A DNA stretch of 64,000 nt, taken from positions 40,490,257 through 40,554,256 of the forward strand of contig JAHRHZ010000009.1 of assembly GCA_024137785.1 (NCBI GenBank), read 5' to 3'. Below, piece after piece: positions 9,341 through 60,540 of the stretch (its first letter is position 1; every line of letters starts with the position of its first letter). The DNA comes from Ginglymostoma cirratum (Eukaryota). Made by a program: the position numbers and the translations under genes. The notes beneath the pieces are model-generated. The model was given only the letters and a program-made list of their open reading frames with translations. It was not told the DNA's origin and did not search any database.

Positions 9341-12158
9341 AACCGGATGATGAATAGTTATACTCTGAGTTAAACACTCACCCATTGAAACAACAGGAAA
9401 ACCTCTTTGATTGATGCCTATAGTATGTTTCCAAACATATCAGTATTGACCCTTATCATGTATTGCATCTTGAAACCCAATAGACCACGTAACAAGTAGA
9501 AGAATACATAAGAGACACTTCAACATCACTTATTGCTTATGTGCTGAAGGTTCCCTTGCTGATGCATTGTCATATAATACATTATATTAGAATCTATATT
9601 CAATTTCAATCCATTAACATGTGGGTAGATTTTCTTGCTACGTAACTAGAAGGTAATCTGTTAGGCAGATTGCTGATGCTTTATGTAACCCATCCAAGTT
9701 TTGATTCAAATGGAGGATAGTGATCCCCTGGATAATGGAGGTGTACATAAATTCTCTGATAAGTACCATATTGGCCCAAATGTAACACGTGGTATGTTAA
9801 ACACAGCATGGAAGTTGATAAATTCACATTACAGTGTTTCCCATTGATCTTCATCTTCAGGAAGTATCATTCAGCAGAATACCAAGAGCTATTATGAACC
9901 TTGAGTAGAATAGAAATTAGATGGACACTTAGGCCTGAAAGTTAACCCAATTCACTTGCTTGGAGCAGGGTAGCTTTGGGTTAGGTATCCATAATATACC
10001 TTCTCCAATTGTAACCTTCATTGAAATTATATAATTAATACAAAAGTATGACTGCGCATGTAGCAGAATTTTGATACTTTGCCTAAAGCTCAGGTATCTC
10101 TTCATAAGGATTTCAAATACATTTTTAGTGATAATTTCTACAACATTGCAAAAAGGAAGAAAGAATGTGAGTCTCAGTAAAAATAGATGAAAAATCTTCA
10201 GTCTGTCTTGCTTATCTGTCAATAAACATCTAGAGCCCAATTGTGGGTTTCTGAATTTTGTCAGGTATCTGTACACTAATGTTACGTTTGCTCTTCTGTC
10301 AAGCAAGACTCTGCAGCAGAAGGCAATTCTAGGAATATTTTCACTTTATTAAATGCTACACCCAGAAGTAAATAAGATCCCATAGGATTGAGTTTAAGAA
10401 TTCACATTCAGGCTACAGAGCTTTGTTCACCAACAGCACATATTAAACATTCAGGGCCAGGGGTCAATGAGATGTTCATCTATTAATCTTAATGGGCGGA
10501 AAATCTTGCCTGATCCACTGGCACAAATTAACATCATGAACTTCATGCTGGGATCACAAATTGACAAATATATAAATATTTATCTATATACGTATAAATA
10601 TTATTGAATCATACAAAATGTATAATGCAGAAATAAACAAGTTGGTCCAACTGATTCATAGTGGTGGTTTTTCTCCATTTGTGCTGCTTTACTCACTAAT
10701 TCAGGATCAGGAATATAGTTATATAATCAATGAACTCTTGATATTTCTCTTTACAAATGAAAACTTTGTTACAAATCTAAATATTTGTCTTCTTTCCTCT
10801 TTTAAATTCACATCATAAGTGGACACAATACAGCATATTATATGAATGCTCCCAAGGAATGTATGTTCTTGTAAATGTTAGTGTGTGCCAAATGTTAAGC
10901 ATGATTAGTAGAAAAGAAAGAACAAATTTTTGTTTTATCCGTTGTTATTCTTCCAAGATAGTTCACTAATCTTTGATGATATTGTAATATAAAAAATGCT
11001 TCTCTTCATCACTAAATCTCACCCTCAGTCCTGGTCTACCATTGCATCCAGCATCTAATGTGAAGGCTGTACGGATTTCTTTGTCACTGAGATTCAAACC
11101 ATCAAACCCTATAACACATCCATACCCAACAAAGACGGCCTACGGGCCCTCAGACTTTTCCTGTCCGACAGACCCATCCAGTCCACCCCACCAATACCCT
11201 CCTCCACCTTGCTGAACTAGTCCTCACCCTCAATAACTTTTCCTTCAACTCTTCCCACTTTCTCCAAATCCAGGGGGTTGTCATGGGCATTCACATGGGC
11301 CCCAGCATCATCTGCCTGTTTTTAGGTCATGTTGAACAGTCCCTCTTCAGTACATACACTAGTACTATTCCCCAACTTTTCTGCTGTTACATTGATGACT
11401 GCAAAGGTGTTGTATTCTGCACCCGGGCTGAACTGGAGCAGTTCATCAACTTCACTAACAACTTCCACCCACCCTCAAACTCACTTGGTCCATCTCAGAC
11501 ACCTCCCTCCCCTTTTTTGACCTCTCTGTATCCATTCCTGGTGACAGCTTATGAATCAAATTTACCATAATCCCACAGACTCCCATAGCTGCCTAGACTA
11601 CACCTCCTCCCACCATGTATCCTAAAAAATTTCCATCCCATTTTCCCAATTCCTCCATTTCCATTGCATCTGCTCTGAGAAGGAGACGTTCCACTCCCAA
11701 GCATCCAGGATATCCATCTTTTCAAAAGACACTCCTTTCCTCCTTCTGTCATCCAGACAGCCCTCCATTGCTCCTCCTCCATCCCGTGCTCCACATTTCT
11801 TAACCACTCCCAAACATAATAAAGATAGGGTCCCCTTTGTCCTCACTTTTCAACTCACCAGCTTCCGTATCCAATGTATCATCCTCAAACACTTCCGCTG
11901 ACTCCAATTAAACCCCACCACTTTGAACATCTTCCACTCCCCACCCCTCTCTGCCTTCTGCAAGGCCCATTCCCTTTGCCACTCCTTAGTTCACACCACA
12001 CTCCCCATCAAACACTCCAACCCACCCAGTACCTTCCCTTCCCCGTAACTGTAAAAGATACAACACCTGCCCACACAGCACCTCTCCCACCTCCATTTAG
12101 AGCCCTAAACAGTCCTTCCAGGTGAGGCAGAGCTTCACCTGCATCTCATCCAACCTAG

Positions 12159-12747
12159 AGATAAAAGGTACTGCAGATGCTGGAGAATCCGAGATAACAA
12201 GCATGGGGCTGGATGAACACAGCAGGTCAAGCAGCATCATAGGAGCTCCTATGATGCTGCTTGACCTGCNNNNNNNNNNNNNNNNNNNNNNNNNNNNNNN
12301 NNNNNNNNNNNNNNNNNNNNNNNNNNNNNNNNNNNNNNNNNNNNNNNNNNNNNNNNNNNNNNNNNNNNNNNNNNNNNNNNNNNNNNNNNNNNNNNNNNNN
12401 NNNNNNNNNNNNNNNNNNNNNNNNNNNNNNNNNNNNNNNNNNNNNNNNNNNNNNNNNNNNNNNNNNNNNNNNNNNNNNNNNNNNNNNNNNNNNNNNNNNN
12501 NNNNNNNNNNNNNNNNNNNNNNNNNNNNNNNNNNNNNNNNNNNNNNNNNNNNNNNNNNNNNNNNNNNNNNNNNNNNNNNNNNNNNNNNNNNNNNNNNNNN
12601 NNNNNNNNNNNNNNNNNNNNNNNNNNNNNNNNNNNNNNNNNNNNNNNNNNNNNNNNNNNNNNNNNNNNNTGAACACAGCAGGTCAAGCAGCATCATAGGA
12701 GCTCCTATGATGCTGCTTGACCTGCTGTGTTCATCCAGCCCCATGCT
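12159..12747 (-). mobile_element. PLE terminal-repeat fold-back insertion (hairpin 1)
   Basis: Palindrome centred on AGGAG|CTCCT; 15-bp TSD TCTCATCCAACCTAG at 12144-12158 and 12748-12762; spans a gap. Confidence 0.85.
12270..12669. other. Assembly gap (400 N)
   Basis: Run of exactly 400 N. Confidence 1.
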
Positions 12748-14899
12748 TCTCATCCAACCTAGTCTATTGCATCCGGTGCTCCTGATGTGGTCTTCTCTAC
12801 ATCGGTGAGAACAAACCTAGAGTAGGTGACTGTTTCACCAAGCATCTTCGCCTGGCCTGTAACAGCCAGCCTAACCTCCTGGTCACCACCTATTTCAATT
12901 CCCCGCCCCACTCCCCCTCTGAAATGTCCATCCTCGGCCTCCTCCAGTGTCACAGCGACTCTCAACATAAATTTGAAGAATAACACCTTATCTTCCGCCT
13001 GGGCACCCTACAGCCTGGAGGGCTCAACTTTGAGTTCTCCAATTTCAAAGAACTTTCCCACTTATCCCCCGGCTCCCCTTCCAGCTCCACTTCCTCCCTT
13101 CCATTCCACCTTCTGACCCTCTCTTCTAGTCACCATCCGGATTCATCCCTCCCACCAACCAACCAGGCCATACCTACTACCAATGTCCACCTATCACCTC
13201 CATTTTGCCTCCACCACTTCACCTCCTCTCTTCACTGTTGCTCTCCCTAGCCCCACATCCAGTCCTGGTGTAGAGTCATATGCGAAACCTTGACTGTCCC
13301 TTTCTTCCAGATGCTTGCTGTGTTCTTCTAGCCTCCTGTTTGTCTACACCAAACCATTCTGTCTTTCTCTTGTCTTTATACTCCCACCTGTTCAGGTCAG
13401 TGATACTATGGTTACTAATGTAACAAGCTAAATCTCATTCAACGCTTCCCCTGCCTAGATTTATACCTTTGTCTTTCTCTGGTTTCTGTCCTATTTCCCA
13501 TGACGCTTTCTCTGGGTTCATCTTGTCCATGAAACTCACTTTTTGCTCTTTTCAATCCCTTCCTACGGATGCATTGGCCAACTGGCCGTTTCCCAGTTCC
13601 CATGCTCATTCACACTCTAAGAGGTTCTTTCTTTTCAGGTACTATCCTCTGCGTCTCTACAACTATTGTCCTTTGTGTGTCAAAGTCCCTAAACATTTAT
13701 CACTATCATATTACATTTGGGTCCAACATTTTCTGCAACTTGCCCATTTAATGTTCTTCCATTGACATTGCAACAAAACTGTGTTACCCAACATTTAAAA
13801 TGAATTCCGCTGTAACTGTGACCACTTGGTATGTGAGCCTTTCCCATTCTTCTTGAATTCTCTGTAATTTTCAACATGCTGAACAACACTGTTCTCCAAT
13901 ACCTTACTGAATAATTTAGTTACATCAATCGACCCTCATGTTCTAAGTTAATCTGCTTCCAATAAAAGCTTCTTTTTCTGCACCAGCATGGTTAGATTTG
14001 AAGTATCCCAATAACCAACTATGGGTTTGAGCCTATTTCTTATCTTTAACTTGCACTGCAACCTCTTCAGCCTTACTAACCATCCTGCTGGAATTTCCTG
14101 GAGATGTGTTATCAAGTCCAAGCTGTCCGACAGCCACTTAAGCTTAAAAATGATGTAAAAACTCAGCCTTTCTCCAAAACTTGTCTAACACACTTCCCAT
14201 CTTTGTCTCATCTTTGCTAATTGTGTGTTTGTTGGATAAACCCTAAACATTGGAACTGCCACCTAAACCATTCTGCCTTTTCACTTCTTATTCATCCTTT
14301 AGGACCCATTGCAAAGTTATTTTTCATAGTCATTTAGACTCTACTGCTAACTGAGACCTTTAACATTGGCTCCATGTCAATTTTTATTAGATTATGCTTT
14401 AGTGAGGAATGACAGGATGCTTATCTACATTAAATGTATTTCATAAATGCAATTCACTCTTGTTAATAAGTCAAGACATCTGAGTGGTTGAATATCAGTG
14501 GGATCCTTGACACATACGTAAAAATCGTTCATTATTGGAATCAATAGTAAATAAATCAGCAAAACAACATAAAACTGCACTGATTGTAAAGCATCTGTTA
14601 AGATGTAAAAGACTTGTTAAATTACGATCAAGTGAAAATTAAGTAGAATTATAATAAGTGGGCATGGAAAATAAATATAAATCTCAAAAATTCAGAGAGA
14701 TTAGTTGTATTGAAATTTGAATGTTTTATGAAAAATGCATATATGCAGTGATTTACATGACTACTAACTATTTTAAAGCACTTACAGGCATTGGAGCACT
14801 TTAAGATTATAATCACTTTGCCATGTAAGTAACACAGTAGTCAATTTTGAACACAGCTAAAACCTACAAACATGGCTGGAAAATCTCTTTCTGTCATGC

Positions 14900-15750
14900 T
14901 GATTCATACATCTGCTCAGATGAGGGCAAATGCAACAGACACCTAAAGGTTTTGAAGGACACTCTTATAAGAACAGGATATGATGCTCAACTCATCAATC
15001 ACCAGTTCTGACATGCCACAGCAAAAAAATGGCAACAACATCCCCAGAAGACAGACACAGGATTTGACCAATAGAGTAGCTTTCATCATCTAGTACTTCC
15101 CTGGAATGGAGAAACTACACCACGTTCTTCGTAGCCTTCAACATGTCGTCAATGATGGTGAGCATCTCACCAAGATCTTCCCTTTTTCTCTACTGCTGTC
15201 CTTGAAACAAATTGCCAAACTTCAGACAGACCATTGGTCACAGCAAACCACCCAGCCTTCAGTACAACACTGACCACAACACCACACAAGTGATGGCAAT
15301 TTCTGCAAGACATGCCAGATCGTCATGTATCGTACCATCACACATGGGAACACCACGCACCACGTACAGGGCAGATACTCATGTGACTCAACCAATGTTG
15401 TCTCTCTCATACACTGCTGGCAAAGATGCCCTGAGGCATGGTATATTGGCAAGACCATGCAGATGCTACAACAACGAATAAATGGACATGATGCAACAAT
15501 CGCTCAACAGGAATGTTCCCTCCCAGTGGAGGAACACTTCAGCGGCCAAAGGCATTCAGTCTCTGATCTTCAGGTAAGCGTTCTCCAAATCAGACTTTGA
15601 GATACACAACAATGCAGAATTGCCGAGCAAGGACTGATAGCCAAGGTCATTACCCATGAAGATGGCCTCAACCATGATCTTGGGCTTTTGTCATGCTATA
15701 AGTTACCCCACCACACTGTTCTGTATCTGTAAAATCTTCCTTACTGTCCT
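14900..15750 (+). mobile_element. Third PLE family, 3' fragment with GIY-YIG domain
   Basis: ICSDEGKCNRHL...TGY, C...CKTC linker, NVVSLIHCWQRCPEAWYIGKT..LQQRINGH, VEEHF, GLN; several stops. Confidence 0.85.
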
Positions 15751-15768
15751 GTTTTGAGGATTGAAGAA

Positions 15769-19885: not shown

Positions 19886-20859
19886 TGTGACAACTCTGAC
19901 CAGAATGTCATGAATGAATTTGCCCAGGTGTCCCACAATACCAAAGCAGCCAAATCAATACAAACACAAGTCTGTACCAAAACAAAACATTCCCATTTTA
20001 TTAGGAACAAAATTACAATAATTTCTAATACTAAACATGCTAGCCCTAATCCTACTTGGCCACTATTGTTACAATACTTCCCAAGTCTCTTGTAAATTTG
20101 CACAGTCAATCTCTGAGGCTCTGTGAAACTGCTTTCTCCTTCTCTGTCTCTGCCTGTTGCCGCGCTGGTGTCCTCAAAAGGCCCCAGACAATTCCAAGAG
20201 CAGTTCTAAGATAGGTTCCAAGAGAGCAGTCTGCAGGTGAGCTCTGTTTTTATAGCTTATAGATGGTTTTCTGGAACTTTCTGTAGTTCTGACCGATCTA
20301 GGAAATGCACTTAACAGTTTGAAGCATGAGTCAATCATTTAGATGGCATGCTATTGTCACATTTCTTTGTGTAGCAGGACCTGGTGCCTTTCTGTCTGGG
20401 CTGCCCTTTGTTTAGTGGATAAATTGTTGGGGGTGAGATAACAGCGTGGAGCTGCAGGGACACAGCAGGCCAGGCAGCATCAGAGGAGCAGGAAAGCTGA
20501 CATTTCAGGTCGGGACCCTTCTTCAGAAAGAATAGAATTTCTGAAGAAGGGTCCCAACCCGATACATCGACTTTCCTGCTCCTCTGATGCTGCCTTGCCT
20601 GCTGTGTTCCTGCAGCTCCACGCTGTGTTATCTGACTCCAGCATCGACAGTTCTTACTATCTTTGAGTTGTTGGGGGTGTCTGTGCAGACTAACTGTTGT
20701 CTTTTACATTATGTTAATGTCATTAACACTTGGCTGCTGTGTTCACACTGTGTCTGGTGTGTGGGTTTTCTGATTTCAGCGTTTCACTAACGTACTGAGC
20801 ATTCCTTGCTGTTTGGCCAAGTTGGCAACCTATGTTTTAGCAGCCAGGAGGCTGCTACA
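19886..20859 (-). mobile_element. Possible solo LTR (unknown family) hosting hairpin 2
   Basis: TGTGAC...CTACA termini, minus-strand AATAAA near 19995 and TATA-like box near 20250; no TSD found. Confidence 0.3.
20436..20667 (+). mobile_element. PLE terminal-repeat fold-back insertion with two head-to-head hammerhead motifs (hairpin 2)
   Basis: Inverted arms around TTCTTCAGAAA-GAATAGAA-TTTCTGAAGAA; 12-bp TSD TTGTTGGGGGTG at 20424-20435 and 20668-20679. Confidence 0.9.
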
Positions 20860-22584: not shown

Positions 22585-24165
22585 GGGATGGCATTTTTGC
22601 AGGAGGGTGGGTGGGAGGAGGTGTATTCCAGGTAGCTGTGGGAGTCAGTGGGCTTGAAATGGACATCTGTCTCTAGGTGGTTGCCCGAGATGGAGACAGA
22701 GAGGTCCAGGAAGGAGAGAGAAGTGTTGGAGATCGTCCAGGTGAACTTCAGGTTGGGGTGGAAGGTGTTGGTGAAGTGGATGAACTGTTCGAGCTCCTCG
22801 TGGGAGCACGAGGCGGCGCCGATGCAGTCATCAATGTAACGGAGGAAGAGGTAGGGTTTAGGGCCAGTGTAGGTACGGAAGAGGGATTGTTCCACGTAAC
22901 CTACAAAGAGGCAGGCATAGCTTGGGCCCATGCGGGTACCCATGGCCACCCCCTTTGTCTGTAGGAAGTGGGAGGAATTGCAAGAAAAGTCTATTCCCAA
23001 TTCCTTCGCCTCCACCGCATCTGCTCCCAGGATGAGACATTCCACTCCCGTACATCTCAAATGTCCTCATTCTTCAAGGACCGCAACTTCCCCCCCCCCC
23101 ACACAGTGGTAGAGAACACCCTCAACCATGTCTCCCGCATTTCCTGGAACACATCCCTCACGCCCCATCCCCGCAATAATGACCAAAAAAGAATCCCCCT
23201 CATCCTCACGTACCACCCCACCAACCTCCAGATCCAACGCATCATCCTCCGACACTTCAGCCATCTGCAATCAGACCCCACCAAAGACATTTTTCCCTCC
23301 CCACCCTTATCTGCCTTCCGGAGGGACCACTCCCTCCACGACTCCCTTGTCCGTTCCACACTCCCCTCCAGCCCCACCACACCCGACACTTTTCCTTGTA
23401 ACCGCAGGAAGTGCTACACCTGCCCCCACACCTCCTCCCTCACCCCAATCCCAGGCCCCAAGAAGACTTTCCACATCAGGCAGATGTTCACCTGCACATC
23501 TGCTAATGTGGTATACTGCATCCGCTGTACCCGTTGTGGCTTTCTCTACATCGGGGAAACCAAGCGGAGGCTTGGGGACCACTTTACAGAACACCTGCGC
23601 TCAGTGCGCAACAAACAACTGCACCTCCCAGTCCTCAGATGACATGTCCATCCTGGGCCTCCTGCAATGCCACAGTGATGCCACCCAAAGGCTGCAGGAA
23701 CAGCAAATCATATTCAGCCTGGGAACCCTGCAGCCCAATGGCATCAATGTGGATTTCACAAGCTTCAAAATCTCCCCTCCCCCAACCGCATCCCAAAACC
23801 AGCCCAGCTCATCTCCACCTCCCTAACCTGTTTTTCCTCTCACCTCAAGCCACACCCCCATCTCCTATCTACTTACATCATCCCACCCCCTTGACCTGTC
23901 CATCCTCCCTGGACTGACCTATCTCGTCCCTAACCTCTACCTACATTCACCTTTACTGGCTCCATCCCCACCTCTTCAACTTGTCTGCCTCCCCCTCTCT
24001 CCCTATTTATTTCAGAACCCTCTTCCCCTCCCCCATTTCTGATGAAGGATCTAGGCCCGAAACATCAAGTTTTCCTGCTCCTATGATGCTGCTTACCTGC
24101 TGTGTTCATCTAGTCCCATGCTTGTTATCTCAGATTCTCCAGCATCTGCAGTACCTTTTATCTCT
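22585..24165 (+). mobile_element. PLE (same family as 1-1081) with inverted 5' RT segment 22585-22990
   Basis: Minus strand GVAMGTRMGPSYACLF..RYIDD..SCKNAIP; plus strand YSQFLRL...GIY-YIG; hammerhead at 24035-24070 (GTC mutated to ATC); 29-bp deletion near 23633. Confidence 0.93.
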
Positions 24166-26709: not shown

Positions 26710-28500
26710 CATAGAAACATAGAAACATAGAAGCATAAAAGATAGGAGCAGGAGGAGGCCATTTGACCCATTGAGTGTGGTCTGCCATTCTTCACGATCG
26801 TGTCTGATCATCCAACTCAATAGTCTACTCCTGCATTCTCCCCATTACCTTTGATCCCACTCACCCAAAGTGCCAAATCCAGTTACCTCTTGAATACATT
26901 AAATGTTTTGACATCAACTAAATTCCACAGGCTCACCACTCTTTGGGTAAAGAAATATCTCCTCATCTCCATCCTAAATCGTCTACCCTGAATCTTCATA
27001 TTGTGACCCCTGGTTCTGGACACACCCCCATCGGGAACATCCTCCCTGCATCTACCCTGTTCAGTCCTATCAGAATTTTATAAGTCTCCATGAGATTCTG
27101 TGCGCACCCCCCCACTTTGTCTGAACTCCAGCAAAAACAATCCCAACCTAGTCCATCTTTCTTCATATGTCAGACCCACCATCCCCAGAATCAACCTGGT
27201 AAGCATTTGTTGCACTTCCTCGAGAGCAAGTGCATCCTTCCTTTGAAAAGGAGACGGAAACTGCACACAATACTCCAGGTGTGGCCTCACCAAGGCCCTG
27301 TGCAACAATACATCCCTGCTCCTGTACTCGAGAACTTTTGCAATGAAGGCTAACATACCATTTGTCTTCTTTCCGACCTGCTGCACCTGCATACTTACCT
27401 TCAGTGATTGGTGCACAAGGACGACCAGGTCCCACTGCACACTTCCCTCTCCCAATTTACAGCCATTCAGGTGGTAATCTTCCTTTTTGTTTTTGCTTCG
27501 GAAGTGAATAACCTCATATTCATCCAAACTATACTGCATCTGCCACTGATTTGTCCACTCACTCAACCTGTCAAGGTCATGCTGAAGGATCTCTGCATCC
27601 TCATCACAGTTCACCATCCCATCCAGCTTGGTGTCATCTGCAAACTTGGAGATGTTACATTTTGTTCCCTCATCCAAATCATTAATATCTATTGTGAATA
27701 GCTGGGGTACCAGCACCAATCCCTGTGAGACCCTCGATTTACTGCCTGCCAATCCAAAAAGAACCCATTAATTGCCACTCTTTGTTTCATTTCTGTCAAC
27801 CAGTTTCCTATCCATCTCAATATACTTCCTCCTATCCCATGCACTTTAATCTTGCACATTAATCTCTTACATGGGATTTTGTCTAACACTTTCTGAAAGT
27901 CCAAATGTACTACATTGGCTGGCTCCCACCTGTCAACTCTACTAGTTACATCTTCATAGAATTCCAACAGATTTATCATGCATGATTTCCATTTCCTTTA
28001 TTCATTCATGGGATGAGGGCATCTCTGGCTAGGCAGCATTCATTGCCCATCCCTAACTGCCTAGAGGGTAGTTAAGGATAAGCCAAATTGCTATGGACCT
28101 GGAGTCACATGTAGGCCAGACCATGTAAGGATGTCAGTTTCCTTCCTAAAGGACACTAGTGAGCCAGGTGTGCTTTTCCGACAATCGACAATGGATTCAC
28201 AGTCATCATTGAATTTTTAATTCCAGATATTTATTGAATTCAAATTCCACCATCTGCTTTGGGAATTTGTACTGGGTCCCCGGAATGTTGTCTGGTCTCT
28301 GGATTAACAGCCCAGCGATAATACCACTAGGCCATCGCCTCCCCAGTAAATCCGTGCTGACTCTGTCTGCTCCTGCCACTGCTTTCTAAATGCTCTGCTT
28401 TAAAATCCTTGACAATGCATGCGGGAATTTTCCCCACTACCAATGTTAGGCTCACTGATCTATAATTCCCTGTTTTCTCTCTGCCTCCCTTTTTGAATAT
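26710..28500 (-). mobile_element. CR1 LINE RT and 3' end, interrupted by a SINE
   Basis: Minus ORFs with GNYRSVSLT, LDFQK..DK, SKFADDTKL, LVRPHLEYCVQF; (CATAGAAA)n tail at 26710. Confidence 0.93.
27997..28344 (-). mobile_element. tRNA-like SINE sharing its 3' tail with the LINE at 37650-40633
   Basis: Homologous to 30192-30522, 34839-35207 and 49265-49582; tail TAGGGATGGGCAAT.AATGCTG. Confidence 0.8.
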
Positions 28501-28529
28501 TGGCCAAGGTGGTAAAGACCACAAGGTAC

Positions 28530-28925: not shown

Positions 28926-29038
28926 AAATAGCACTGAATAAATAGTAATAGGAATGTCAGATTGGAGCAAGACTATTAAGCAATGAATGGGTCAAGATGG
29001 TGAATTGACTGACAGAGAAACAGTCATGTTGAGTATCT

Positions 29039-29573
29039 GAGATAACAAGGTGTAGAGCTGGATGAACACAGCAGGCCAAGCAGCATCAGNNNNNNNNNNN
29101 NNNNNNNNNNNNNNNNNNNNNNNNNNNNNNNNNNNNNNNNNNNNNNNNNNNNNNNNNNNNNNNNNNNNNNNNNNNNNNNNNNNNNNNNNNNNNNNNNNNN
29201 NNNNNNNNNNNNNNNNNNNNNNNNNNNNNNNNNNNNNNNNNNNNNNNNNNNNNNNNNNNNNNNNNNNNNNNNNNNNNNNNNNNNNNNNNNNNNNNNNNNN
29301 NNNNNNNNNNNNNNNNNNNNNNNNNNNNNNNNNNNNNNNNNNNNNNNNNNNNNNNNNNNNNNNNNNNNNNNNNNNNNNNNNNNNNNNNNNNNNNNNNNNN
29401 NNNNNNNNNNNNNNNNNNNNNNNNNNNNNNNNNNNNNNNNNNNNNNNNNNNNNNNNNNNNNNNNNNNNNNNNNNNNNNNNNNNNNNNNNCTGATGCTGCT
29501 TGGCCTGCTGTGTTCATCCAGCTCTACACCTTGTTATCTCAGTCTTCAGCATCTTCAGTTCCTACTATCTCTC
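29039..29573 (+). mobile_element. PLE terminal-repeat fold-back insertion (hairpin 3), centre lost in a gap
   Basis: Perfect inverted arms 29037-29089 and 29490-29542; probable TSD CATGTTGAGTATCT / CATTTTAAGTATCT (12/14). Confidence 0.85.
29090..29489. other. Assembly gap (400 N)
   Basis: Run of exactly 400 N. Confidence 1.
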
Positions 29574-29798
29574 AAACATTTTAAGTATCTACTTTGGTCA
29601 GTGATATCCTGTGACTTTTTTTTTGCCAGAGGACTTTCCAAATCATTGCATTATACGTATTAACACTTTATAGTTAAGGAAATTCAAGCATATATGAGTT
29701 ACATGTCTATTTCTAGTGCTCTGAATTTCCATTTTGCTGTAGGCTCTTTACCATGGCTACATGAAGCTAGCAAACACATTTCTCAATGAAAGAGTGAG

Positions 29799-40633: not shown

Positions 40634-40668
40634 ATCTTGGTGGTCACAGATGAATTATGAATTGGGTG

Positions 40669-41514
40669 GGAAGCTGAAAGAACACAGCAGGTCAGGCAAC
40701 ATCAGAGGAGCAGGAAAGCTGACATTTTGGGTCTGGATCCTTCTTCAGAAATGCTGAATTTCTGAAGAAGGGTCCAGACCCGAAACGTAAGCTTTCCTGC
40801 TCATCTGATACTGCCTGGCTTGCTGTGTTCATCCAGCTCCACACCTTGTTATCTCAAACTCCAGCATCGGCAGTTCCTATTATCTCTGAGTGAGTTATAA
40901 CCCCACTGCTAAGCCTCTTCTAAGAATGCCTACCTTGAAAAAGTTACCCTCCTCCCTCCAGAAAGACTTCAGTGGATTTCTCTCCCACAGCAACCCTTTG
41001 GTAATCTCTTCGGCCCTGAAACTGCTCGACCACATCCTGAAGCAAACCAGGTACTACAGCCACATTGCCTTTCTCAGTGCCTGCCTACAGAACCGGATTA
41101 ACCCCAATGGACTGCAATCTACATTCAGGCATTCCCAATTTGGCCCCAACCGCAATGACCGCTACATACAGAACACTCAGATCCTCCAAAAACCTTTTTC
41201 TCTGCGACTCCTCAAGCACACACTCACAGCAATGCACCGGCATCTCCTGGCACTACAATCAAGCCTACCTCAGCTCAGAGCCTCCCTCTCCCAGGCCTGA
41301 AAAGGACCTCTCCTGTTTTTCATTCTTCTCAGGATCCACAGCCTCAACTCACGATTCTACTTCACCCTGTGGGACATTAAAAACCCATTTCTGAAGAAGG
41401 GTCCAGATCTGAAATGTCAGCTTTCCTGCTCCTCTGATGCTGCCTGGCCCACTGTGTTCATCTAACTCCACACCTTGTTATCTCAGACTCCAGCATCGGC
41501 AGTTCTAATATCTC
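40669..41514 (+). mobile_element. Internally deleted mini-PLE: inverted repeat + repeat + ORF 5' end + repeat
   Basis: Hammerhead motifs at about 40715-40751 (-), 40758-40795 (+) and 41387-41423 (+); TSD TGAATTATGAATTG(G/A)GTG at 40651-40668 and 41515-41532. Confidence 0.9.
40926..41385 (+). pseudogene. N-terminal domain of PLE ORF, truncated, with an in-frame TGA at 41298
   Basis: MPTLKK...SHIAFLSACLQNRINPNGL resembles the PLE N-terminal H..FL..C....P.GL motif; the frame stays open after the TGA (KGPLLFFIL..IHSLN). Confidence 0.7.
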
Positions 41515-42229
41515 TGAATTATGAATTGAGTGCCCGCTATTGAAGTCATCTGCTAATTATTTTCATTGAAATTATTATGATAAACCTGTGATTTCTGTAA
41601 TGGGTGTTTAATCCGCAATGCCTCAAACACCAAGTTGGAAATCTACCCCACTGCTTCCTGTGTTTATTCAAAACAAAACTGGAAAAGTGAGTTAAATTGG
41701 AACAAGGTAAATTAAAAAAAAAACAGTTCTTGTTAATTCTGTATATGTGAGAGGCTTTGAAATAATTAATGAAACAATTATCAGGTTAGTAATAAAACAT
41801 TAACTCAGAATTGCTCCCTCTAACACTTCTACAATAAATTAAACCAAGCCTTGAGCAATGTTCCCTTTCTTTTTCTTAAATGCAATACCTGCACAATAAA
41901 AGTGTGTAAAGTGGATGCTTTAAAACTGTTAAATCAGAATGCATGCATCATGTTATTTTAATCATCTTAGTTGTCCAGTTAAGCTTGAATTTTATATTAA
42001 ATGGTCACATTGTACTGAACAGGTTGAGATATGATTCTGAATGCAGATCCATGCCATCAAGCAGTGTCAACAAGTGGGAGCAATTTGGCAACATTGTCCA
42101 GAGCATGTTTCCAGAGCATCTCAGTTCATCTTCTACAGAAACATTCATCGTTGCCTTTACATTCACCAAATTTGTCTATTCCAATATGCTTTTCATTGCC
42201 TTTCATCTGTCACCTAAATAAATGTTAGA

Positions 42230-42680
42230 TCAAATGGAATTTTGTTGTCTTATCCTATATTATACCTGTCCCCTTCACTTGCCATCCTGTGCTCGCTGAT
42301 GTACATTGGTCCCTGGGTAAGCAACACCTTGAGTTTTAAAGCCTCAGTCTTGATTTCAAATCCTTCCATGTGCCCAGGCTTCTTAAAATCAGTAGCATCC
42401 TGCTGTTCAACAACTTCCCAGGTAATTGTGTTCTTTTGGATCTGACCTCTTGTATATCCCCAACCTTAATCGCTCCAGAATTGCTGCTTGGAATTCCCGT
42501 TCCTAAACATTTGGGTTTCTCTCTCTATTCATTTAATATACTCCTTAAAAATCTCTTTGACAAAGCAAGTGACCTGCTCTAATATCTAAAAGTGTGGCTC
42601 AAAGTCATGTTTTTCTCCATACAGCACCTGTGAAGTACATTATAACATTGTATTATGTTTTAGGCGTTATATAAATACAG
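42230..42680 (+). mobile_element. L2-type LINE 3' end
   Basis: PVLADVHW..FK..L.FKS motif and tail TGTGAAG...GGCGTTATATAAATAC. Confidence 0.65.
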
Positions 42681-42683
42681 TGT

Positions 42684-42912
42684 CAACACAGTGTGGAGCT
42701 GGAGGAACACAGCAGACTAGGCAGCATCAGAGGAGCAGGAATGTTGATGTTTCGGTTCGGGACCCTTCTTCAGAAATGGCCTTTTCTGAAGAAGGGTCCC
42801 AACCCGAAACACCAACTTTCCTGCTCCTCTGATGCTGCCTGGCCTGTTGTGTTCCTCCAGCTCCACTCTGTGTTATCTCTAACTCCAGGATCTACAGTTC
42901 TTACTGTCTCTG
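42684..42912 (+). mobile_element. PLE terminal-repeat fold-back insertion with two head-to-head hammerhead motifs (hairpin 5)
   Basis: Inverted arms around CTTCAGAAA-TGGCCT-TTTCTGAAG; 15-bp TSD ATATAAATA(C/T)AGTGT at 42669-42683 and 42913-42927. Confidence 0.9.
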
Positions 42913-43329
42913 ATATAAATATAGTGTATTTTCTGAAATTACATAGCTTGCAGAATCTGTCCTTTACTTTTTAGGGCATATGGCAGCATCTCACTGCCCT
43001 TGTTTTTACACATGATTAACTGCATTACTGTCTCAATCCTTTCTTTGCTATAGCGTAAGATTACTTCTAGGATAATTTGTCTTATATTTTGGTAGGCAAT
43101 AACTACATTCTCATAAAAATTGTATATAAATTATTTCACAAAGCAATGACTCCAAAAATATACATTTGCAGTTTGTAAGTTTTATGTTATCACATGTTAA
43201 TAAGTTTCTTTACATCATATACAGATATAAATTTTCATGCCGCAAAATTTGTAAGTTCCTCTTTATTCTTTGATGATAGCATATCACATTAATTAGGACT
43301 CTGTTAGCTCATTACAAACTATGCTTAAC

Positions 43330-46712: not shown

Positions 46713-47106
46713 ATTGGACCATATATATTCCCCTCCAAAAAGCACTCAGGCTTCTTGTGAGCCTTCCATTCCCATTCAGCAAAAGAAAATCAGCAGCAAC
46801 TCCCTGAAATCTGATTTAACGTAACATTATGGAGTGAAGAAAATTATAAACAGCTTGCCAAGCAAAGAAAAACACCATGTTGAAGAGATACATTGATATG
46901 CTTTTAAATATGAATAATTAATGAAAGCAATTCATTAAGTACAAGTCAGCAGAACTAACAAATAAAATCTTTTGAGCTTTTCATAGAAGAAGCAAAGCTA
47001 GAGTGACTGACTAGGTCTCAGATCCTGGTCACTTTGGTCTAATTGGGATCATGTGAAGAAGTTGAGTTTAACTTGTGCTGTCCCCTGGTAGTGCAGTGAA
47101 TAGTGG

Positions 47107-47670
47107 AGATAAAAGGTACTGCAGATGCTGGAGAATGCGAGATAACAAGCATGGGGCTGGATGAACACAGCAGGTCAAGCNNNNNNNNNNNNNNNNNNNN
47201 NNNNNNNNNNNNNNNNNNNNNNNNNNNNNNNNNNNNNNNNNNNNNNNNNNNNNNNNNNNNNNNNNNNNNNNNNNNNNNNNNNNNNNNNNNNNNNNNNNNN
47301 NNNNNNNNNNNNNNNNNNNNNNNNNNNNNNNNNNNNNNNNNNNNNNNNNNNNNNNNNNNNNNNNNNNNNNNNNNNNNNNNNNNNNNNNNNNNNNNNNNNN
47401 NNNNNNNNNNNNNNNNNNNNNNNNNNNNNNNNNNNNNNNNNNNNNNNNNNNNNNNNNNNNNNNNNNNNNNNNNNNNNNNNNNNNNNNNNNNNNNNNNNNN
47501 NNNNNNNNNNNNNNNNNNNNNNNNNNNNNNNNNNNNNNNNNNNNNNNNNNNNNNNNNNNNNNNNNNNNNNNNNNNNNNNNGCAGGAAAACTTGACGTTTC
47601 GGGCCCGAAACGTCAAGTTTTCCTGCTCCTATGATGCTGCTTGACCTGCTGTGTTCATCCAGCCCCATGC
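47107..47670 (-). mobile_element. PLE terminal-repeat fold-back insertion (hairpin 6)
   Basis: Centre TTGACGTTTCGGG|CCCGAAACGTCAA; TSD TGCAGTG(A/T)ATAGTGGA at 47092-47107 and 47668-47683; spans a gap. Confidence 0.88.
47181..47580. other. Assembly gap (400 N)
   Basis: Run of exactly 400 N. Confidence 1.
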
Positions 47671-47821
47671 AGTGTATAGTGGAAGAGAGTTTCCTTTCAA
47701 CCTGGATTTTCCTCCTCTCCTGGCTCACTGTGAATTGATTTTAGAAAGGAAGGAGAAGGGGAGCAGCGTGTCTACAGATGCTCCGACAACAAGCGCGAGT
47801 GCACGCGTACACCTGTGTAGA

Positions 47822-47840
47822 TGTGTGTGTGTGTGTGTGT
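47822..47840. repeat. (TG)n microsatellite
   Basis: TGTGTGTGTGTGTGTGTGT. Confidence 0.9.
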
Positions 47841-52612: not shown

Positions 52613-53069
52613 GTATTCCTTGGTACCCACAAGGTTGAAAATAGATTTGCCAATGATGGGACAAATAAAACCAAGAATGTACAAGAGGACTAAATTGGAC
52701 AAATCCTCAGAGGTCTTTTAGGGCTGGAGAATGTTGCAAAAACAGAAAAACTGATGATTCCAAGAAGGAATATAAAAACAAAGCTAAGAACTTTCATAAC
52801 AACAGAAAGTGCTGGAGAAAATCAGCAGGTCTAGCAACTGTGGAGAGATAAATAGAGTTCACATTCAAGTCCAAAATGACAAGAGATTTAAATTTGAAGT
52901 GTCATTAGGCCAAGAGCCAGTGTAGGTCAGTGAGTACAAGGATGGTGGGATCATAGAGATTAATGTAAGCTTGAGGAAGACAGCGAAGTTTGGATGAGCA
53001 CTAGTTGACAGAGGATGAAAGATGGGAATTCAGCAAAGAAAACATTGAAAAAAATCAAGTCTGGATGTA

Positions 53070-53480
53070 TCAAGTCTGGCAGGCTTCCTAGCATTTGATT
53101 TGCTCTTGTAACAGTATTAATATAGCTCGTCCAATTCAGTTTATGGTCAATGTTAAACCCCAAGATGTTGATTATGGGGATTTCACTGATGAAAATACTA
53201 TTGTCTGTCAAGGGGCAACAGTTGGATTCTCTCTTATTGGAAACATTTATTGTTTGGCACTTGTATGGTGTGAATGTCACCTGTCACCTGTCAGCTCAAG
53301 CCTGGGTATTGTCATTTGACAATGACTTGCTTTATTATATGAGGGCTCATGATGATGCTGAATATTGTGCAACCATAAGCAAACATCCCACTCATGACCT
53401 TATGATGGAAAGGAAGTTATTAACGAAGTAGCCCAATGGTCATGCCTCGGACAGTAGGAACTCCTACAAAAATGTCCTGG
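53070..53480 (-). mobile_element. Fragment of the LINE family at 37650-40633
   Basis: Minus ORF TFTPYKCQT..SNKRESN..INILG..ID.KLNWTSYIN. Confidence 0.7.
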
Positions 53481-54699
53481 AATTAATCTCTTGTCAGTGA
53501 ACTGAGCGATTGATAAGCAGGGTCCTTGTGCCTCTAAATGATTTAGAATGCTTACTTATCTTTTTTGAGGTAATAACATGATTATTGCATTGAGTTATTT
53601 TTGGATGACATTTGTAAACCATCAGGACTTTAATGGCTGATCCATACTTGATTTGTAACTACAGTATAGAAGTATAGATGATCACTTTAATAGTTCCTGT
53701 CATTTTAAAGATTTAATTTCTCTCATTTTCACTTTTTTTGGACACACTGTGCTAATATTACCAGAAATCTATTGCAAGTTTCAAGGAAGGTTTCTCTCAG
53801 TGAGGCCTGGTATGCTATCCTGCGCCATTGTCCCAAATACAGCTCATTAACTATGGACTACCCCATAGGTGCTCAGCTTATCACAGTCTTCCACTCATCA
53901 TTGCCAGGATATCCTAGGACCGCTGGCAGTAGTGCCATATTTGAAACACAGCCTGTATCCGGTGAAGTATTGGTAGTCCAGAGTTGACTTTCTCTCTGCA
54001 TGCAGTGGAACAGCAAACACAAATCAAGGACACATAAGTAGCATAGCTGACACTTCATTGCACATACAAAGTATCACATCAATCACAGTTTATGAAGCAA
54101 GTCACAGAGTTTGCTGGGCCATTTCCTCATCTCACCTTACAACACTCTCTATATCAGTGCTATATTTTCCTCAATGCCCATTATAGCATTAATAAAGCAT
54201 GGTACAGCAATATGTCCACTCCCTTGACCCACGGCTTTTTGAAAACCATGTCCAGCTGCCTGGCCTGGTGCCTGCACTACTCAGCAAAAGGAAAATCAAC
54301 AGTTTTCTGTGCTTTTAAAGTGGTGCTGAGGATGCAAAGTATAAAAAGGCAAGGCAATAAAGTGGGAACAAAGTTACTGAGTATGAAGAGAGACAACTAG
54401 CAGCCCTGAGATGCACCCAAGTTGAATCCATGAGATGGATGCCTGTTCGTGTATGCAAAGTGTCCTGGCAAGACTATTGCAATGAAAGGTGCCAGTGTGC
54501 TCCAAAGTGCAACATTAAAGTGTATATTTGCATTGAAGTGGTTTGGAAATATGCCCTGAGGATGCAATGAGGCTGGTATTTGTTGGATGGAGATACAGTG
54601 ATCACTGCCCATGGAACATGCCAAGACATATTGATGTGTGCGTCCAGGATGGAAGTTCGGAAGAGCAGTGGTGAGCTGGAGTCATCAGGTACCGCTTTG

Positions 54700-55497
54700 A
54701 CTTTTACGTTTGATTGTGAATTCTAATGAAATTGAAATGATAAGAAATTCAGAACTGTGCAGGATTAGAGAGATTTGGGAGTCTTTCTACATTGTTTCTG
54801 ATCAGCTCAAATTTGAGCTAGTATTCATTCATCTGATCAGAGACAACTGACATTAGACTCACTGGACAGTAATTGCTTGGTTTCCCTCCCTCACACTTCT
54901 TAAATAATGGTGTCTTTGACAATTTTCTAATCCAACTGCCCAATTCCCAAAATACAAATCACTAAAAGTTAGTGCACAGGTACAAAAATCAATCAGAAGT
55001 CCAGAAGAATGTAATCCTCCATCTAACTGAGACCAGAATACAAAAGAGAGGAAACTATATAATTGCAAAAACTCTCTGTGTTCACATCTGGAGTGCTGTG
55101 ATTAAATGTAGGCACATCACTGCAGATATGTTATATTGCCCTTGAAGGGGCTATTTCACAAATTCACCAGAATGATACTGGACTATGTTATGTTGTGAAA
55201 AGTTGCACAACTTGGTTTCTACTTGGCTTCTATTTGATTTCAATATCCTTTCATACAGCAGATTTGGGGGTGGGATGTAATTCAATTGTGGTGTTCAGAA
55301 TATTAAAAAGGATTAAATAGGGGCAGTATAAGAAAGTTACTGCTCTGATAAGGGAATCCAGAGTAAGTGGTATGTTCTTAAAATTAGTGATAGGGCATTA
55401 AGGATTGAAACCAGGTGTCATTGGAATCCCTAAAAGGCTTTGAATACTGTCACAATTGAAGTTAGTAAAGCTGAGATCAATAGAATGTTGTTGGATA
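54700..55497 (+). mobile_element. Old CR1 LINE RT C-terminal remnant
   Basis: GAGAGATTTGGGAGT (RDLGV), CATCTGGAGTGCTGTG (HLEYCV-like), TTCACCAGAATGATA (FTRMI). Confidence 0.6.
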
Positions 55498-56101
55498 AGG
55501 AATACCTTCATTGGAAGGGGCACTGAGAATAAGGATAGGCGAGTTATGCTACAGATTTATAGAACTTCAGTGAGACCATTCTTGGATTCTTGCATACAGT
55601 TCTGGTCACCACACATTCAAAAAGACATAGATGCTTTGGAGAGGGTATGGGGGATTTTAGCTATGAAGAAATGTTGCATATACTGGGTTTGTTTTCACTA
55701 GAATGAAGGAGGCAGAAGGGCGACCTAATAGAAGTTTATAAGATTGCGAATGAAGTGGATAGCGTGGAAGGCTTTTCCCCAGGATGATGGAGTCAATTAT
55801 GAGGGGACACAGGTTCAAGTTGCAGGGTTTGGGCAGGTGGGGGTGGAGAGTAGTTTAAAAGAAATATGCAATGCAAGCTTTTCACACAAAGGGTATTGAG
55901 TGCCTGGAACACTTCTCCAGAACAGGTGGTGGAAGCAGACACATTAGCAGCATTCAAGAAATACCTGGAAGAATACACAAATAGGAAGGGAAGAGAAGGA
56001 TACGGATCTATAAGTGAAGTATGGAAGCGTGAATCGTGTTGGTGCAGGCTTGGAGGGCTGAAGTGCCTGTTCCTGTGCTGTATTGTTCTTTTTTGTTCTC
56101 T
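55498..56101 (+). mobile_element. Younger CR1 3' fragment nested in the older CR1
   Basis: FIGRG..YRTSVRP.L..CIQFWSP, FTQRVLSAWN; flanking direct repeat TTGTTGGATA at 55488-55497 and 56102-56111. Confidence 0.82.
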
Positions 56102-56594
56102 TTGTTGGATAGGTGGAGCAAAGACAGATAAATGGGTCAAATAGTCTCTCATTGCACAGTAACAATTTTGTGATTGTGTAATAAACTTGATCAGTCATGA
56201 TCAAAATGAATGCCCTGCAAGAGGGTTAGAGTTAGCCCATCTTTGATGGAAGAGACATTAGCAGGATTGGACTCTCTAATATTGTCAATCTTGCTGTCTT
56301 TCAATGGATGATGTGTAAGGGTACAGTGGAGCAAATATTTGTTCTGAGCACTCGATAAGATTTTTTAGGTTGAGCAGAGAACAGAAAATTGAAGGGCACA
56401 ATCCTGTTAATGTCCCTTCCATTAACGATGTAAATCTGCTTTATTTGTTTTTCTGAAATACCTTGGCTTATTGTTGTGTTTGTATATTCCTCCTAAATAG
56501 TTGCCCACTGTTTGCTAATGTAGCACATTAACGTTTGACTGTTATCTAAAGGTGAAAATTTGTTTGTGATGAAAGCGTCCTATTACCTCCACAC

Positions 56595-56778
56595 ACTAAT
56601 TGCAGGTACAGTTACAATGTTTAAAAGACATTTAGATGAGTTCACGAATAGGAAAGTTATGGAGGGATACGGGCCAGGACCAGGTAGTAGAGACTAGTTT
56701 AGTTTGGGATTATGGTCAGCATGGAGTGATTGAACCAAAGGGTCTGTTTCCACGCTGTATGACTCTATAACTCTATAA
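56595..56778 (+). mobile_element. CR1 3' end fragment
   Basis: Matches 19720-19885 (GAGGGATACGGGCCA..GGGTCTGTTTCC..GACTCTATAACTCTAT tail). Confidence 0.8.
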
Positions 56779-57929
56779 TATGCATATAGACCTCTTGGGA
56801 GGTCTTCATAAAATTCTACACCAAATTGGCCCAGTTAGTTTTCTGCTGCCATTCACTTTTTGGTAATCCAGTTTTGTGGACCCATTCAAAATAAATTATT
56901 CTGTATACATTTCAAGAATACTAGCTATAAGGACTTCCAGAATCTAGATATTTTAATCGAGTTTAAAATATACCACAGTTACATGAATGATATACCAAAT
57001 TAGTTGTAACTTCAATACATCAAAAACGAAGCAACCTATAATTGTTGACTTTTCATTTGCTTCTATTGTAGTAGAAGTTATGACATTTGGATTGTACCAA
57101 CATGTTAGCAGCATAATCACACACCCTAACAAATATGATTTAGGTTTACTTATTTTTACGAAAAGAGAAAATTTGCCCATCGTTTGAAAATGATGTCTCA
57201 GACTCATGTGGGATTGAGCATTAAGAAAATGTATTTTAATATTTTAAGACCAGTAATGCCTGTCATTTAAAACAACTTTATTTTCAGTGTTCCCAAAATG
57301 ATTAATTATTGCTGTTAAAGATGTGCCCTTAGAGACTCAAACAAATTCTGAAAGTGTTTTAAAATCAGTCATCAAAATCAAAGAAAGAATGAGGCTGTAG
57401 GAAGAATGCAACCTACTCAGAGTAGTTACAATCCAGAAGAAATTAATTTGGGTGCAACTACCTTCAAATGAAATGATTTAAATTTTATGCCATATTGTCA
57501 GCGCAGTACTGAATTGTTATTTGCAATTACAAGATACAAGTGCTGAAGTTACCGTAAATTGTAATCATAAACAATCGAATGCAGAATGAAGTGTATGTGG
57601 TCTAAGTTAACCTGTTGCCAGTGACAATGATTTGCGCCAGATTACCTGAGAAATAACATACTCTCAAACTGACAGTACAAATAACATAAAAATTATTGTC
57701 TAGTTCAGGTTAACCAAATCTTTTTCAAGCTCTTGTTTGCATTTTTCCCTTAAATTATTACTGTCCTCTAAGTGACCCTTGTCTGGATTCTTGGCTAAAG
57801 GTTACAAATCAATTGATATGGTTTTTGAACGTTATAGTCTTTCCGATAGCCCTATTTTTACAGTCTACATTTAATTGAAATTTTTCTTTCACATTTTACT
57901 AATAAGCAACTTCTTACAACTACCACATT

Positions 57930-58100
57930 GAGTCAAAGAGTCATACCACTTGGAAACAGACCCTTCTGTCCAACTAGCCCATGATAAGCATAATCTCAAA
58001 TTAAACTGGGATCCATTTGTCTGCTCCTGGTTCATATCCCTCCAAACCTTTCCTATTCATGTACTTATCTAAGGGTCTTTTAAATGTTGCAATGGTGCAC
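57930..58100 (-). mobile_element. CR1 3' end fragment
   Basis: GGAAACAGACCCTTC.GTCCAAC..CATATCCCTCCAAACCTTTCCTATTCATG. Confidence 0.75.
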
Positions 58101-59629
58101 ATATGTGTGCTTGATTCATCTATTTAAGTCTGGATTTAGGAGTGAGCCAATGTAAAGCAGGTAATCTCACACAAGCATAATACTTTCATTGGAGTCTGCC
58201 TATTATCTATCACTAAACACGTTCTTCATGCAGGGTACTTATCCATGAAAGGGAAGATCTGAGGATTTCTCTACATATTTGGATGTTGCTCCTTTGGGAA
58301 CAATGCTAGACAATGGGGTAATCAGTCGGGGTAGAATAAAGGTGTGGGTGATGTTCATGAGCCGTAGGATGGATCAGTAATTAAACATCAGGGGAAGGTA
58401 GGGAGAGAGGTCAGCAAACCTAGATGTCAAGGCAAAGGGAAGGAGATCAGAGAACTTAGAGGTGCAGGGTGACCAAATGGGGTGGTGTGTGGAATGAAGA
58501 TTAGTTAATAGCAAATCTTGAAGTCAGGACTCACAGTTTTGAAAGTAAGAGTGATCAATAAAAAATGTGCATTCAGCCTTGATCAGGGGAAAGTGATTTT
58601 GCAATAAATGACCTCAAATAGGGGTTAGCTTTCTCATTTTTTCTCTGCAAAGAGTGTGGCATCTGCTTCTAACCTATGTAAAGAATACTTTTTGCTTATT
58701 GTTGTTAGTATTTTTACGAGCAACATATTTCCAGCCAGAGGTTTCCAGTCAGAACTTTACAGCCTGAAGAACATCTGAAGAATGACTGTCCTTTAAGGCA
58801 GTTTCTAGTCCATAATATTCTTCTTCTTGTCACTTCACCTTTCCTCGCCACTGGACCAGGCAAATTCTGGCTTGAGAGTTGGCTTCAGTGTTGCACAGAT
58901 ATGTTAGTGGAGGTCATGCTAGATGTCTTACTATTTGGGATGCTTTCTGCTCTCACAGTTGACAGGATATGTTTGGCTATATTCTCATTTCTGCAAGACA
59001 ATGTCACAGCAGTAGACACCAGTCCTGAAGAGATTGAGGCACAGCTAAGTAGGCCATATTTCACGGCAGCCTGATGAAAAAGATTAATCTGGGGCACGAG
59101 GCAATTCAAGTCCCTTCATCTATAGATATTTGCCTAGTCACCCTACAATCTAGGAGTTGGGCTGTCTGTCAAATGCCACCCCCTTGACTTCAGCCTCTTT
59201 GGTGGATGCTCTTAATGGATGACAAGGGTTCCTGATCTGTTTTGTCCTGTCTATGCTTGATGTAACCCACTTTGTTATGTTGAATGCAGCAATATCAGCA
59301 AAAGGTCCAGGGTGTCCTCTTTAGTACGTGCCAGGTTGCCAGAAAGAGCTGTAAATGCTACATTGATTTCAGAATCAAACTTCTTGGAATGAGCACAGCA
59401 TTCCCAGATTGAGCATTGGATGAGTAATACCGGGCAGGGGTAGTTGCTTGTAACGTTTTCTAGTCAGTTACCCTATATAAAATGGCCGGCTTCCTTAAGA
59501 AACTGCCTTTACTTCTGTGGCATAGTCTTTATTGCTTTGAGTACAATCTAATATTGCTACAAGATAGTTTAAAAGTAGAATTATAAACTCTGAGGTGAAT
59601 AGTGGAAGAAGGCCAGCAGGTCATAGACA

Positions 59630-60540
59630 TGTTGGTAGAGTGGGTAGATAGGTAGGTGATGAATGTCACTGCAGGGAAGTCTGAGATGATGTATTTTAGT
59701 AGAAGGAACTTTGAAAGCAAGATAAATAAGGGGTACAATTCTAAAGGGCATCCAGGAACAGAGGGATCTGGGTGTATATATGCACGGATTATTGAAAGTA
59801 GCAGGACAGGTCAAGAGAGTACCAAGTAAAGCATACAGTACCCTTTATTAATAGGGGCATAAAGTACAAGAACAAGGAGGCAATGTTGAATGTGTATGAC
59901 ACTTTACAACTGGAGTATTTTGTACAGTTGTAGGCACCATATTTAAAGGTAGGATGTGAATGGATTGAAGTGAGTACAGACATGATGGGTAAAAATAGTT
60001 CCAAGAATGTGGAACTTCAATGATGAAGACAGATTGAAGAGGTTGAGACTGTTCTCCTCGGAGAGAACAAGGTTAAGAGGTAATCTAATCAATGTTTTCA
60101 AAATAATGTGGGCTGGATATGGCAGGCAGAGAGAAAATGTTCCTGCTAGCAAAGAAAACAAGAACAAGAGGGCCTAAATTTAAAGTGATCTGCAAAAGTA
60201 AGTGTGATGCAAAAACAGAGATAGTAGGAACTGCCGATGCTGGAGAATCTGAGATAACACGGTGTGAAGCTAGATGAACACAGCAGGCCAAGCAGCATCG
60301 GAGGAGCAGGAAAGCTGATGTTTTGGGTCGAGACCCTTCTTCAGAAAAACCCGAAATGTCAGCTTTCCTGCTCCTCTGATGCTGCTTGGCCTGCTGTGTT
60401 CATCCAGCTTTACACCGTGATGTGAAAATAGTCTGTTCTCACTAAGCAAGCAGTTAAGGTATGGGACTTACATTTAAGTACATGGGAAGTACATTTAAGA
60501 GACATTTAAGAGACCATTCAATGGCTATTTGGATAAAAAT
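59630..60540 (+). mobile_element. CR1 LINE 3' part, interrupted by hairpin 7
   Basis: QEQRDLGVY, FINRGIKYK, QLEYFVQL, RLKRLRLFS..RLRGNLI motifs. Confidence 0.8.
60216..60416 (-). mobile_element. PLE terminal-repeat fold-back insertion (hairpin 7)
   Basis: Inverted arms; one full hammerhead on the minus strand and a half motif on plus; TSD GTGATG(CA/TG)AAAA at 60204-60215 and 60417-60428. Confidence 0.88.

Follow-up and report, generated by a model that had tools for sequence, protein, structure and literature searches.

Insertions of endonuclease-positive (EN+) Penelope-like elements (PLEs), such as Pen2a of Adineta, have been described as carrying a head-to-head 5' repeat that overlaps the start of the open reading frame (ORF), a tail of 30-40 bp on one end and a target site duplication (TSD) around the whole unit (PMC3846280, PMC8557442). 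The two papers call the origin of the inverted ends and the one-sided tail undefined, and favour self-priming or endonuclease resolution. The Poseidon protein of the anole Anolis carolinensis nicked and extended both target strands in vitro, starting at two positions on the RNA that correspond to the ends of the tail and using uncleaved RNA as the main substrate (PMC11167929). Here we describe short PLE-derived hairpins in Ginglymostoma cirratum, starting from seven insertions in a stretch of 64,000 nucleotides, hereafter the window (GenBank assembly GCA_024137785.1, contig JAHRHZ010000009.1, positions 40,490,257 to 40,554,256, forward strand). The hairpins are the shortest form of the published layout of inverted pseudo-long terminal repeat (pLTR), one-sided tail and TSD. 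An earlier note on this DNA, made from the sequence alone, had left room for novelty of this structure, but the layout was already present in PMC3846280 and PMC8557442. The hairpins are short insertions of the PLE end repeat, probably made in one step by priming from both cut target strands.

The seven sites were head-to-head copies of one terminal repeat, as the earlier note had stated, although its description needed correction on size, gaps and hammerhead content. The label of short palindrome does not fit 40669, which is an 850-bp element (Table 1). The arm length of about 130 nt holds as a maximum for one arm, whereas the other arm has about 95 nt at most; at 12159, 47107 and 60216 the arms were shorter than these values. 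One arm does run to a common end, but the cut of the other is not random and falls at, or close to, a second fixed position 35 nt further in. The hammerhead motif was real (10 matches in the window versus 0.01 expected), but no core could be seen in 12159 and 47107 outside their N runs, and at 29039 the region falls in N. A strictly intact core was found in only one arm of the seven insertions, at 40669. Strong folding of the hairpins was confirmed (z -21), and single terminal repeats folded no better than shuffled sequences.

Table 1. Features of the window. Direct repeats are given as left / right copy with the number of matching positions
Feature	Position	Strand	Direct repeats	Remarks
3' part of parent element	1..1082	+		zinc-finger linker, GIY-YIG endonuclease, C-rich untranslated region, intact minimal hammerhead (954-981), tailed end
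Young hairpin, CTGATGA subfamily	12159..12747	.	12144-12158 / 12748-12762, 15/15 bp	tailed arm left, short arm right; 400 N at 12270-12669; centre well 3' of hammerhead
232-bp hairpin, older CTGAAGA subfamily	20436..20667	.	20424-20435 / 20668-20679, 12/12	short arm left, tailed arm right, 7-nt centre
Hairpin, visible arms identical	29039..29576	.	about 29025-29038 / 29577-29590, 12/14, by eye (missed by strict search)	tailed arm right; 400 N at 29090-29489
850-bp insertion	40669..41514	+	40651-40664 / 41515-41528, 14/14, can be extended to 17/18	inverted short arm ending near 40753; repeat whose minimal hammerhead is intact (40762-40789); ORF start (~490 bp); another repeat, tailed (41385-41514)
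229-bp hairpin	42684..42912	.	42669-42683 / 42913-42927, 14/15	short arm left, tailed arm right
Young hairpin	47107..47667	.	47092-47106 / 47668-47682, 14/15	tailed arm left; centre within hammerhead stem II; 400 N at 47181-47580
~200-bp asymmetric hairpin	60216..60416	.	60204-60215 / 60417-60428, 10/12, by eye; CA/TG difference typical of CpG decay	tailed arm left holds whole hammerhead region; short arm begins inside it

For statistics 204 hairpins were collected from the genome, and 34 were dropped in which one arm stopped short of column 120 or continued into the ORF. Most loci had been selected by their centre, not by their ends; about 17 of the 108 with clear TSDs came from a search with a query containing both ends. 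The TSDs of 12-18 bp claimed for the window are real. All seven sites are flanked by direct repeats, five of which passed the strict search, and in the collection a TSD score of at least 9 was reached by 108 of the 170 remaining hairpins versus 3 of 508 shuffled flank pairs. In 83 of these 108 the TSD was 12-16 bp long, with a mode of 14-15 bp; the range was 9-19 bp, plus one call of 23. Apart from an A+T content of 62%, the base composition of 83 TSDs showed no evident preference. An empty orthologous site with one TSD copy was found for a hairpin outside the window (L076): in 4/4 runs of two related organisms its flanks were joined, and the 202 missing bases equal the 186-bp insert plus a 16-bp TSD copy. 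At 42684 contigs of relatives pass from the flanks into the arms, and none of these contigs bridges the hairpin. The earlier view that the insertions arose by retrotransposition and not by cut-and-paste was supported.

Their PLE origin was likewise borne out by the GIY-YIG domain, reverse transcriptase (RT), linker and terminal repeat of the parent element, the 3' part of which occupies the beginning of the window. The GIY-YIG domain scored above the cut-off (PF01541, E=4.6e-5), and its motif can be seen in the translation. Since a CX2-5CxxC linker between RT and endonuclease marks the Neptune and Nematis clades (PMC8557442), the CX4CxxC linker in the translation of positions 1-690 places the parent, by this definition and as judged from its predicted protein, among the Neptune/Nematis-type EN+ PLEs. 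Full units of about 3.45 kb, with the order N-terminal part, RT, endonuclease, occur elsewhere in the genome in partial tandems. The match of the RT to Pfam RVT_1 was weak (E=0.025, a 115-aa piece), frames were broken in the copies examined, and no intact ORF of the parent was found. Partial tandems, inverted pLTR, one-sided 30-40 bp tail and variable TSD, all features of EN+ PLEs, are present. The repeat starts with a minimal hammerhead and continues directly into the ORF start. This hammerhead resembles those of metazoan PLEs (PMC4209133) in its core, the extra base before stem II and the near-absent, palindromic helix III; the four pairs of stem II were retained in 93-96% of 503 arms. An Rfam scan detected no hammerhead family, only sub-threshold matches to microRNA (miRNA) and snoRNA hairpin models. 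Comparison with a phage collection gave no match, and no tRNA genes were detected.

The outer ends of the hairpins were strictly paired. We denote the short end S and the end about 35 nt further out L; the extra piece of L is the tail of PMC3846280 and PMC8557442. The combination S+L was found in 101 of the 108 hairpins with clear TSDs, S+S or L+L in none, and 7 had one atypical end. This fixed second end speaks against random truncation of the second arm. Random stretches of the genome contained 34 S and 35 L ends, and longer insertions of 502, 850, 1311 and 3801 bp were likewise S+L. The two ends have the motif TATCTC-W-GA in common. Because full-length elements end at either S or L, as do lone copies of 97 and 131 bp with TSDs, S and L both appear to be primary starts.

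Thirty hairpins had one arm that was short on its inner side, and 19 of these could be typed (9 had no clear TSD and 2 were atypical). The inward-short arm was the tailed one in 10/19 and the short-ended one in 9/19. Thus in about half of the cases neither arm contains the other, which speaks against the fold-back of a single strand as the sole mechanism. Arms consisting of little more than the tail also exist (L051, L112). The two arms nevertheless usually derive from one source. At an allele test site 469 of 843 hairpins were G/G, 234 A/A and 140 mixed, so that the arms agreed in 703/843 (54% expected if independent); the mixed fraction was 16.6% versus 46% expected, with a mutation background of 7.1% (75/1056). 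Loop haplotypes agreed in 72 of 79 pairs, compared with 34% expected. A minority of the hairpins would be chimeric, either via a second RNA or by later conversion; two independent RNAs as the rule were ruled out by the low discordance. Hybrids of the CTGATGA and CTGAAGA subfamilies were rare (378 mixed-base matches of any kind versus 2623 + 1660 matched pairs), a weak test because the subfamilies differ in age. A parent fragment in the window (22585..24165, plus strand) has element positions 1950-2355 inverted and 2356 onward direct, the pieces abutting without overlap; two primers acting on one RNA would be expected to leave such a pattern.

The centres of the hairpins were highly variable. 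The distinctness of 163 of 174 centres speaks against the view of the hairpins as a self-copying family, and among 67 longer centres 27 contained a 7-mer from the adjacent arm (1.2 expected). The centres thus point to independent formation and templated end-joining. The inner ends, in contrast, were clustered: of 76 that had been taken without regard to their centre, 43 lie in a span of about 10 nt around the hammerhead CUGA box. As this cluster lies upstream of the cleavage site, the template was probably mostly uncleaved. The sequence CCATTTC at this place is initiator-like. No sharp pile-up was seen at the cleavage site: none of the 76 unselected inner ends was at columns 74-80, and among the first 100 listed, inspected by eye, about 9 were within one base of the site, with about 24 ending 2-6 nt beyond it. 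A possible cap-derived extra G at the junction would be indistinguishable from the palindrome's own symmetry. Old hairpins have mostly retained their inner ends at the same place. Units composed of repeat, ORF start and repeat, with differing junctions, were observed at 40669-41514 and at L094, L102, L113 and L117; the differing junctions suggest that run-off at the 5' end of the RNA was followed by a template jump.

These observations are consistent with a scheme in which the GIY-YIG/RT protein would nick the two target strands with an offset of about 15 bp. One of the 3' ends would prime at the fixed site L and its counterpart at the fixed site S, as a rule on a single leader RNA. Both copies would run toward the RNA 5' end, which is likely to be a few bases before the hammerhead CUGA box, after which microhomology or templated end-joining would link the two DNA ends. 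The hairpin would then be a by-product that arises afresh in nearly all insertions, the short extreme of a range reaching several kb, and the hammerhead a passenger that in most copies is read through uncleaved. Several points weigh against this scheme. Each of its steps was deduced from genomic DNA, and the in vitro data come from another clade. The two-way asymmetry could also be produced by deletion at palindrome centres after fold-back, and the agreement of alleles between arms is predicted also by subfamilies active at different times. Copying both arms from one RNA would require that the second copy displace the first. The 140 discordant hairpins of 843 exceed the 7.1% background, although single background columns reach 15-16%, and 3 of 79 haplotype pairs differ at two or more linked sites, indicating two templates or later gene conversion. 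A few pairs of hairpins have common complex centres, and no TSD was found by eye around the inversion at 22585-24165.

Fold-back self-priming, with an antisense strand as template, has been proposed to explain head-to-head junctions of PLEs (PMC3846280). Applied to the hairpins, one cDNA would fold at a short palindrome and be copied back, the centre being later remodelled by host repair. This alternative, which we regard as unlikely, agrees with the arms having mostly the same alleles, with the exact palindromes at some centres (12159, 47107) and with a single 4-nt microhomology at which, by eye, about 22 of the first 100 listed asymmetric hairpins join. However, a copy made by fold-back must be contained in the copied strand, and the 10/19 hairpins in which the short-ended arm, without tail, has 5' sequence missing from the tailed arm therefore count against it, as do the near tail-only arms. 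Deep later deletion does not seem to be the rule, judging from the old hairpins, which mostly keep the place of their inner ends. Strict S+L pairing would be left without a reason, and arms that are chimeric at several sites occur. The pairing would be explained if the endonuclease set both ends by cuts at a distance of 35 nt in a double-stranded DNA intermediate that is then inserted, and TATCTC-W-GA is indeed found at both ends; the tail has been ascribed to endonuclease resolution of an intermediate (PMC8557442). In one reconstituted PLE, however, the tail ends coincided with reverse-transcription start sites, and cutting leaves the unique templated centres and the non-overlapping inversion unexplained, so that we consider this route improbable. 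An origin of the palindromes as assembly artefacts has a probability close to nil. Its basis is the presence of runs of exactly 400 N in three of the seven sites (12159, 29039, 47107), whose centres are only partly visible, with sequence repeated across the gap (56 bp are written on both sides of the gap at 12270). In all retrieved DNA, most of it selected for arms, 27 of 28 such runs touched an arm, and in the random stretches and the window 6 of 7 were flanked by arms; they look like assembler gaps at near-perfect palindromes. Against an artefact stand the 6-15% difference between arms, CpG decay, TSDs far above chance, the exact empty site in relatives and the relatives' flanks that continue into arms, and doubt is limited to the length and the inner part of the three gapped copies.

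Copying of the hairpins as finished units of a non-autonomous family, similar to miniature inverted-repeat transposable elements (MITEs) or short interspersed elements, is very improbable. In its favour is the pair L016/L017, which have a 27-nt complex centre in common together with private changes, are 94.7% alike (mean 87%) and have different flanks; L313/L314 (96%) and L319/L320 (86%) behave likewise, and each copy has its own TSD. The members of these three pairs have the same arm order and opposite orientation. These few pairs hint that whole hairpins are occasionally copied, but they lie on one contig, 0.6-0.85 Mb apart, and gene conversion between neighbours fits too. Two further pairs, L184/L186 and L315/L316, adjoin N gaps and could reflect misassembly, and a common flank is found in L317/L318. 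Unit copying is also at variance with the 163 distinct centres, with sizes that are continuous into long elements and with the variable TSD length, which is unlike that of a DDE target. The loci L317 and L318 (G000:C2) are 212 kb apart and have a common centre and unique right flank, their left ends differing as S and L; one of the two sites borders an N run, compatible with duplication or misassembly. A combined reading is rather doubtful: every insertion would be primed on both strands at two fixed RNA sites 35 nt apart, the hairpins being 'strong-stop' products, and whole hairpins would in addition be re-copied within about 1 Mb. If true, the hairpins would be an undescribed retro-mobilised palindromic element with local spread.

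Abundance was estimated from 66 random stretches, 22 of which were all N; the 44 readable ones comprised 432,016 bases. The count in these was 17 adjacent hairpins, including 4 that belong to an older relative of the family; hairpins split by gaps were left out. The density of 1 per 25 kb corresponds to about 170,000 hairpins per genome (95% range 100,000-275,000) if the unread parts are alike. The earlier figure of about 1 per 9 kb is therefore correct for the window but not for random stretches. Exact centre patterns had 1660 and 2623 matches in the genome, some doubled across gaps, whereas reversed controls had none. The existence of several subfamilies was supported, sorting of the arms yielding four. 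Their arm-to-arm divergence was 14.7% (13 pairs), 11.8% (100), 8.3% (36) and 6.5% (7), a range indicating that hairpins were produced over a long time. An older related family with the core CTGAGGA gives the same S+L hairpins (L042, L044, L046, L088 and others).

Unlike the rotifer PLEs of PMC3846280, the shark insertions often consist of two repeats alone, about 110-250 bp long and present in the order of 10^5 copies. The modal TSD of 14-15 bp compares with 8-10 bp in the rotifer examples (PMC3846280, PMC8557442). Poseidon, which belongs to a different clade without the linker zinc finger, is similar in having two start sites about a tail apart and roughly 100-130 nt into the leader/ORF, in cutting and extending both target strands and in not needing hammerhead cleavage (PMC11167929); no account of genomic products reduced to hairpins, or of S+L pairing statistics, was found there. 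In Schistosoma dual hammerhead motifs lie 100-700 bp apart on opposite strands (PMC4209133), unlike here, where the two can be 5-30 bp apart and would zip into one duplex; no analysis of the ends or TSDs of the Schistosoma pairs was found in that paper. Animal non-LTR (long terminal repeat) retrozymes are, like the hairpins, hammerhead-bearing PLE derivatives (bioRxiv 10.64898/2026.07.22.740005). By their arrangement the hairpins are not non-LTR retrozymes: the copies are dispersed head-to-head pairs, not head-to-tail tandem arrays with hammerheads. Like MITEs, the hairpins are short, non-coding and hairpin-forming. MITEs have symmetric terminal inverted repeats, a fixed short TSD and a uniform interior. 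By these features the insertions, which the earlier note had called MITE-looking, are not MITEs: their ends always differ by the tail, the TSD is variable and the centres are mostly distinct. In L1 twin priming two target strands prime on one RNA, generating an inversion inside the TSD; the start of the second primer varies in position, and there is no overlap between the pieces. The fragment at 22585-24165 has this form. In the hairpins, unlike L1, the second start has a constant position, and overlap of the two copies is usually almost complete.

In the literature searched, which left Dfam, Repbase, closed journals and supplements outside, no account was found of hairpin-only PLE insertions at this scale or in sharks. 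The hairpins are of moderate interest as a data set, provided by nature, on how PLEs insert. About 10^5 tiny independent insertions provide statistics that separate models (end pairing, two-way asymmetry, allele sharing), and they link the in vitro result of two strands and two start sites to a genome. On the practical side, hairpins break short-read assemblies and can be mis-annotated as MITEs or miRNA hairpins. They are also candidate sources of double-stranded RNA; in a lizard, Penelope was the one massively edited repeat of the LINE (long interspersed element) class, besides CR1 of the chicken (PMC5625713).

Some other features of the window were noted. The host of the 12159 hairpin is the endonuclease region of an older PLE copy, diverged by about 68% (11133-13015). 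A weak 31-bp inverted repeat (77%) at 2163-2320 is unrelated to the PLE arms. The minus strand at 27078-27767 carries an RT fragment of another retroelement, CR1/L2-like by eye (RVT_1, E=1e-4, below the cut-off), and fragments related to it recur in the window.

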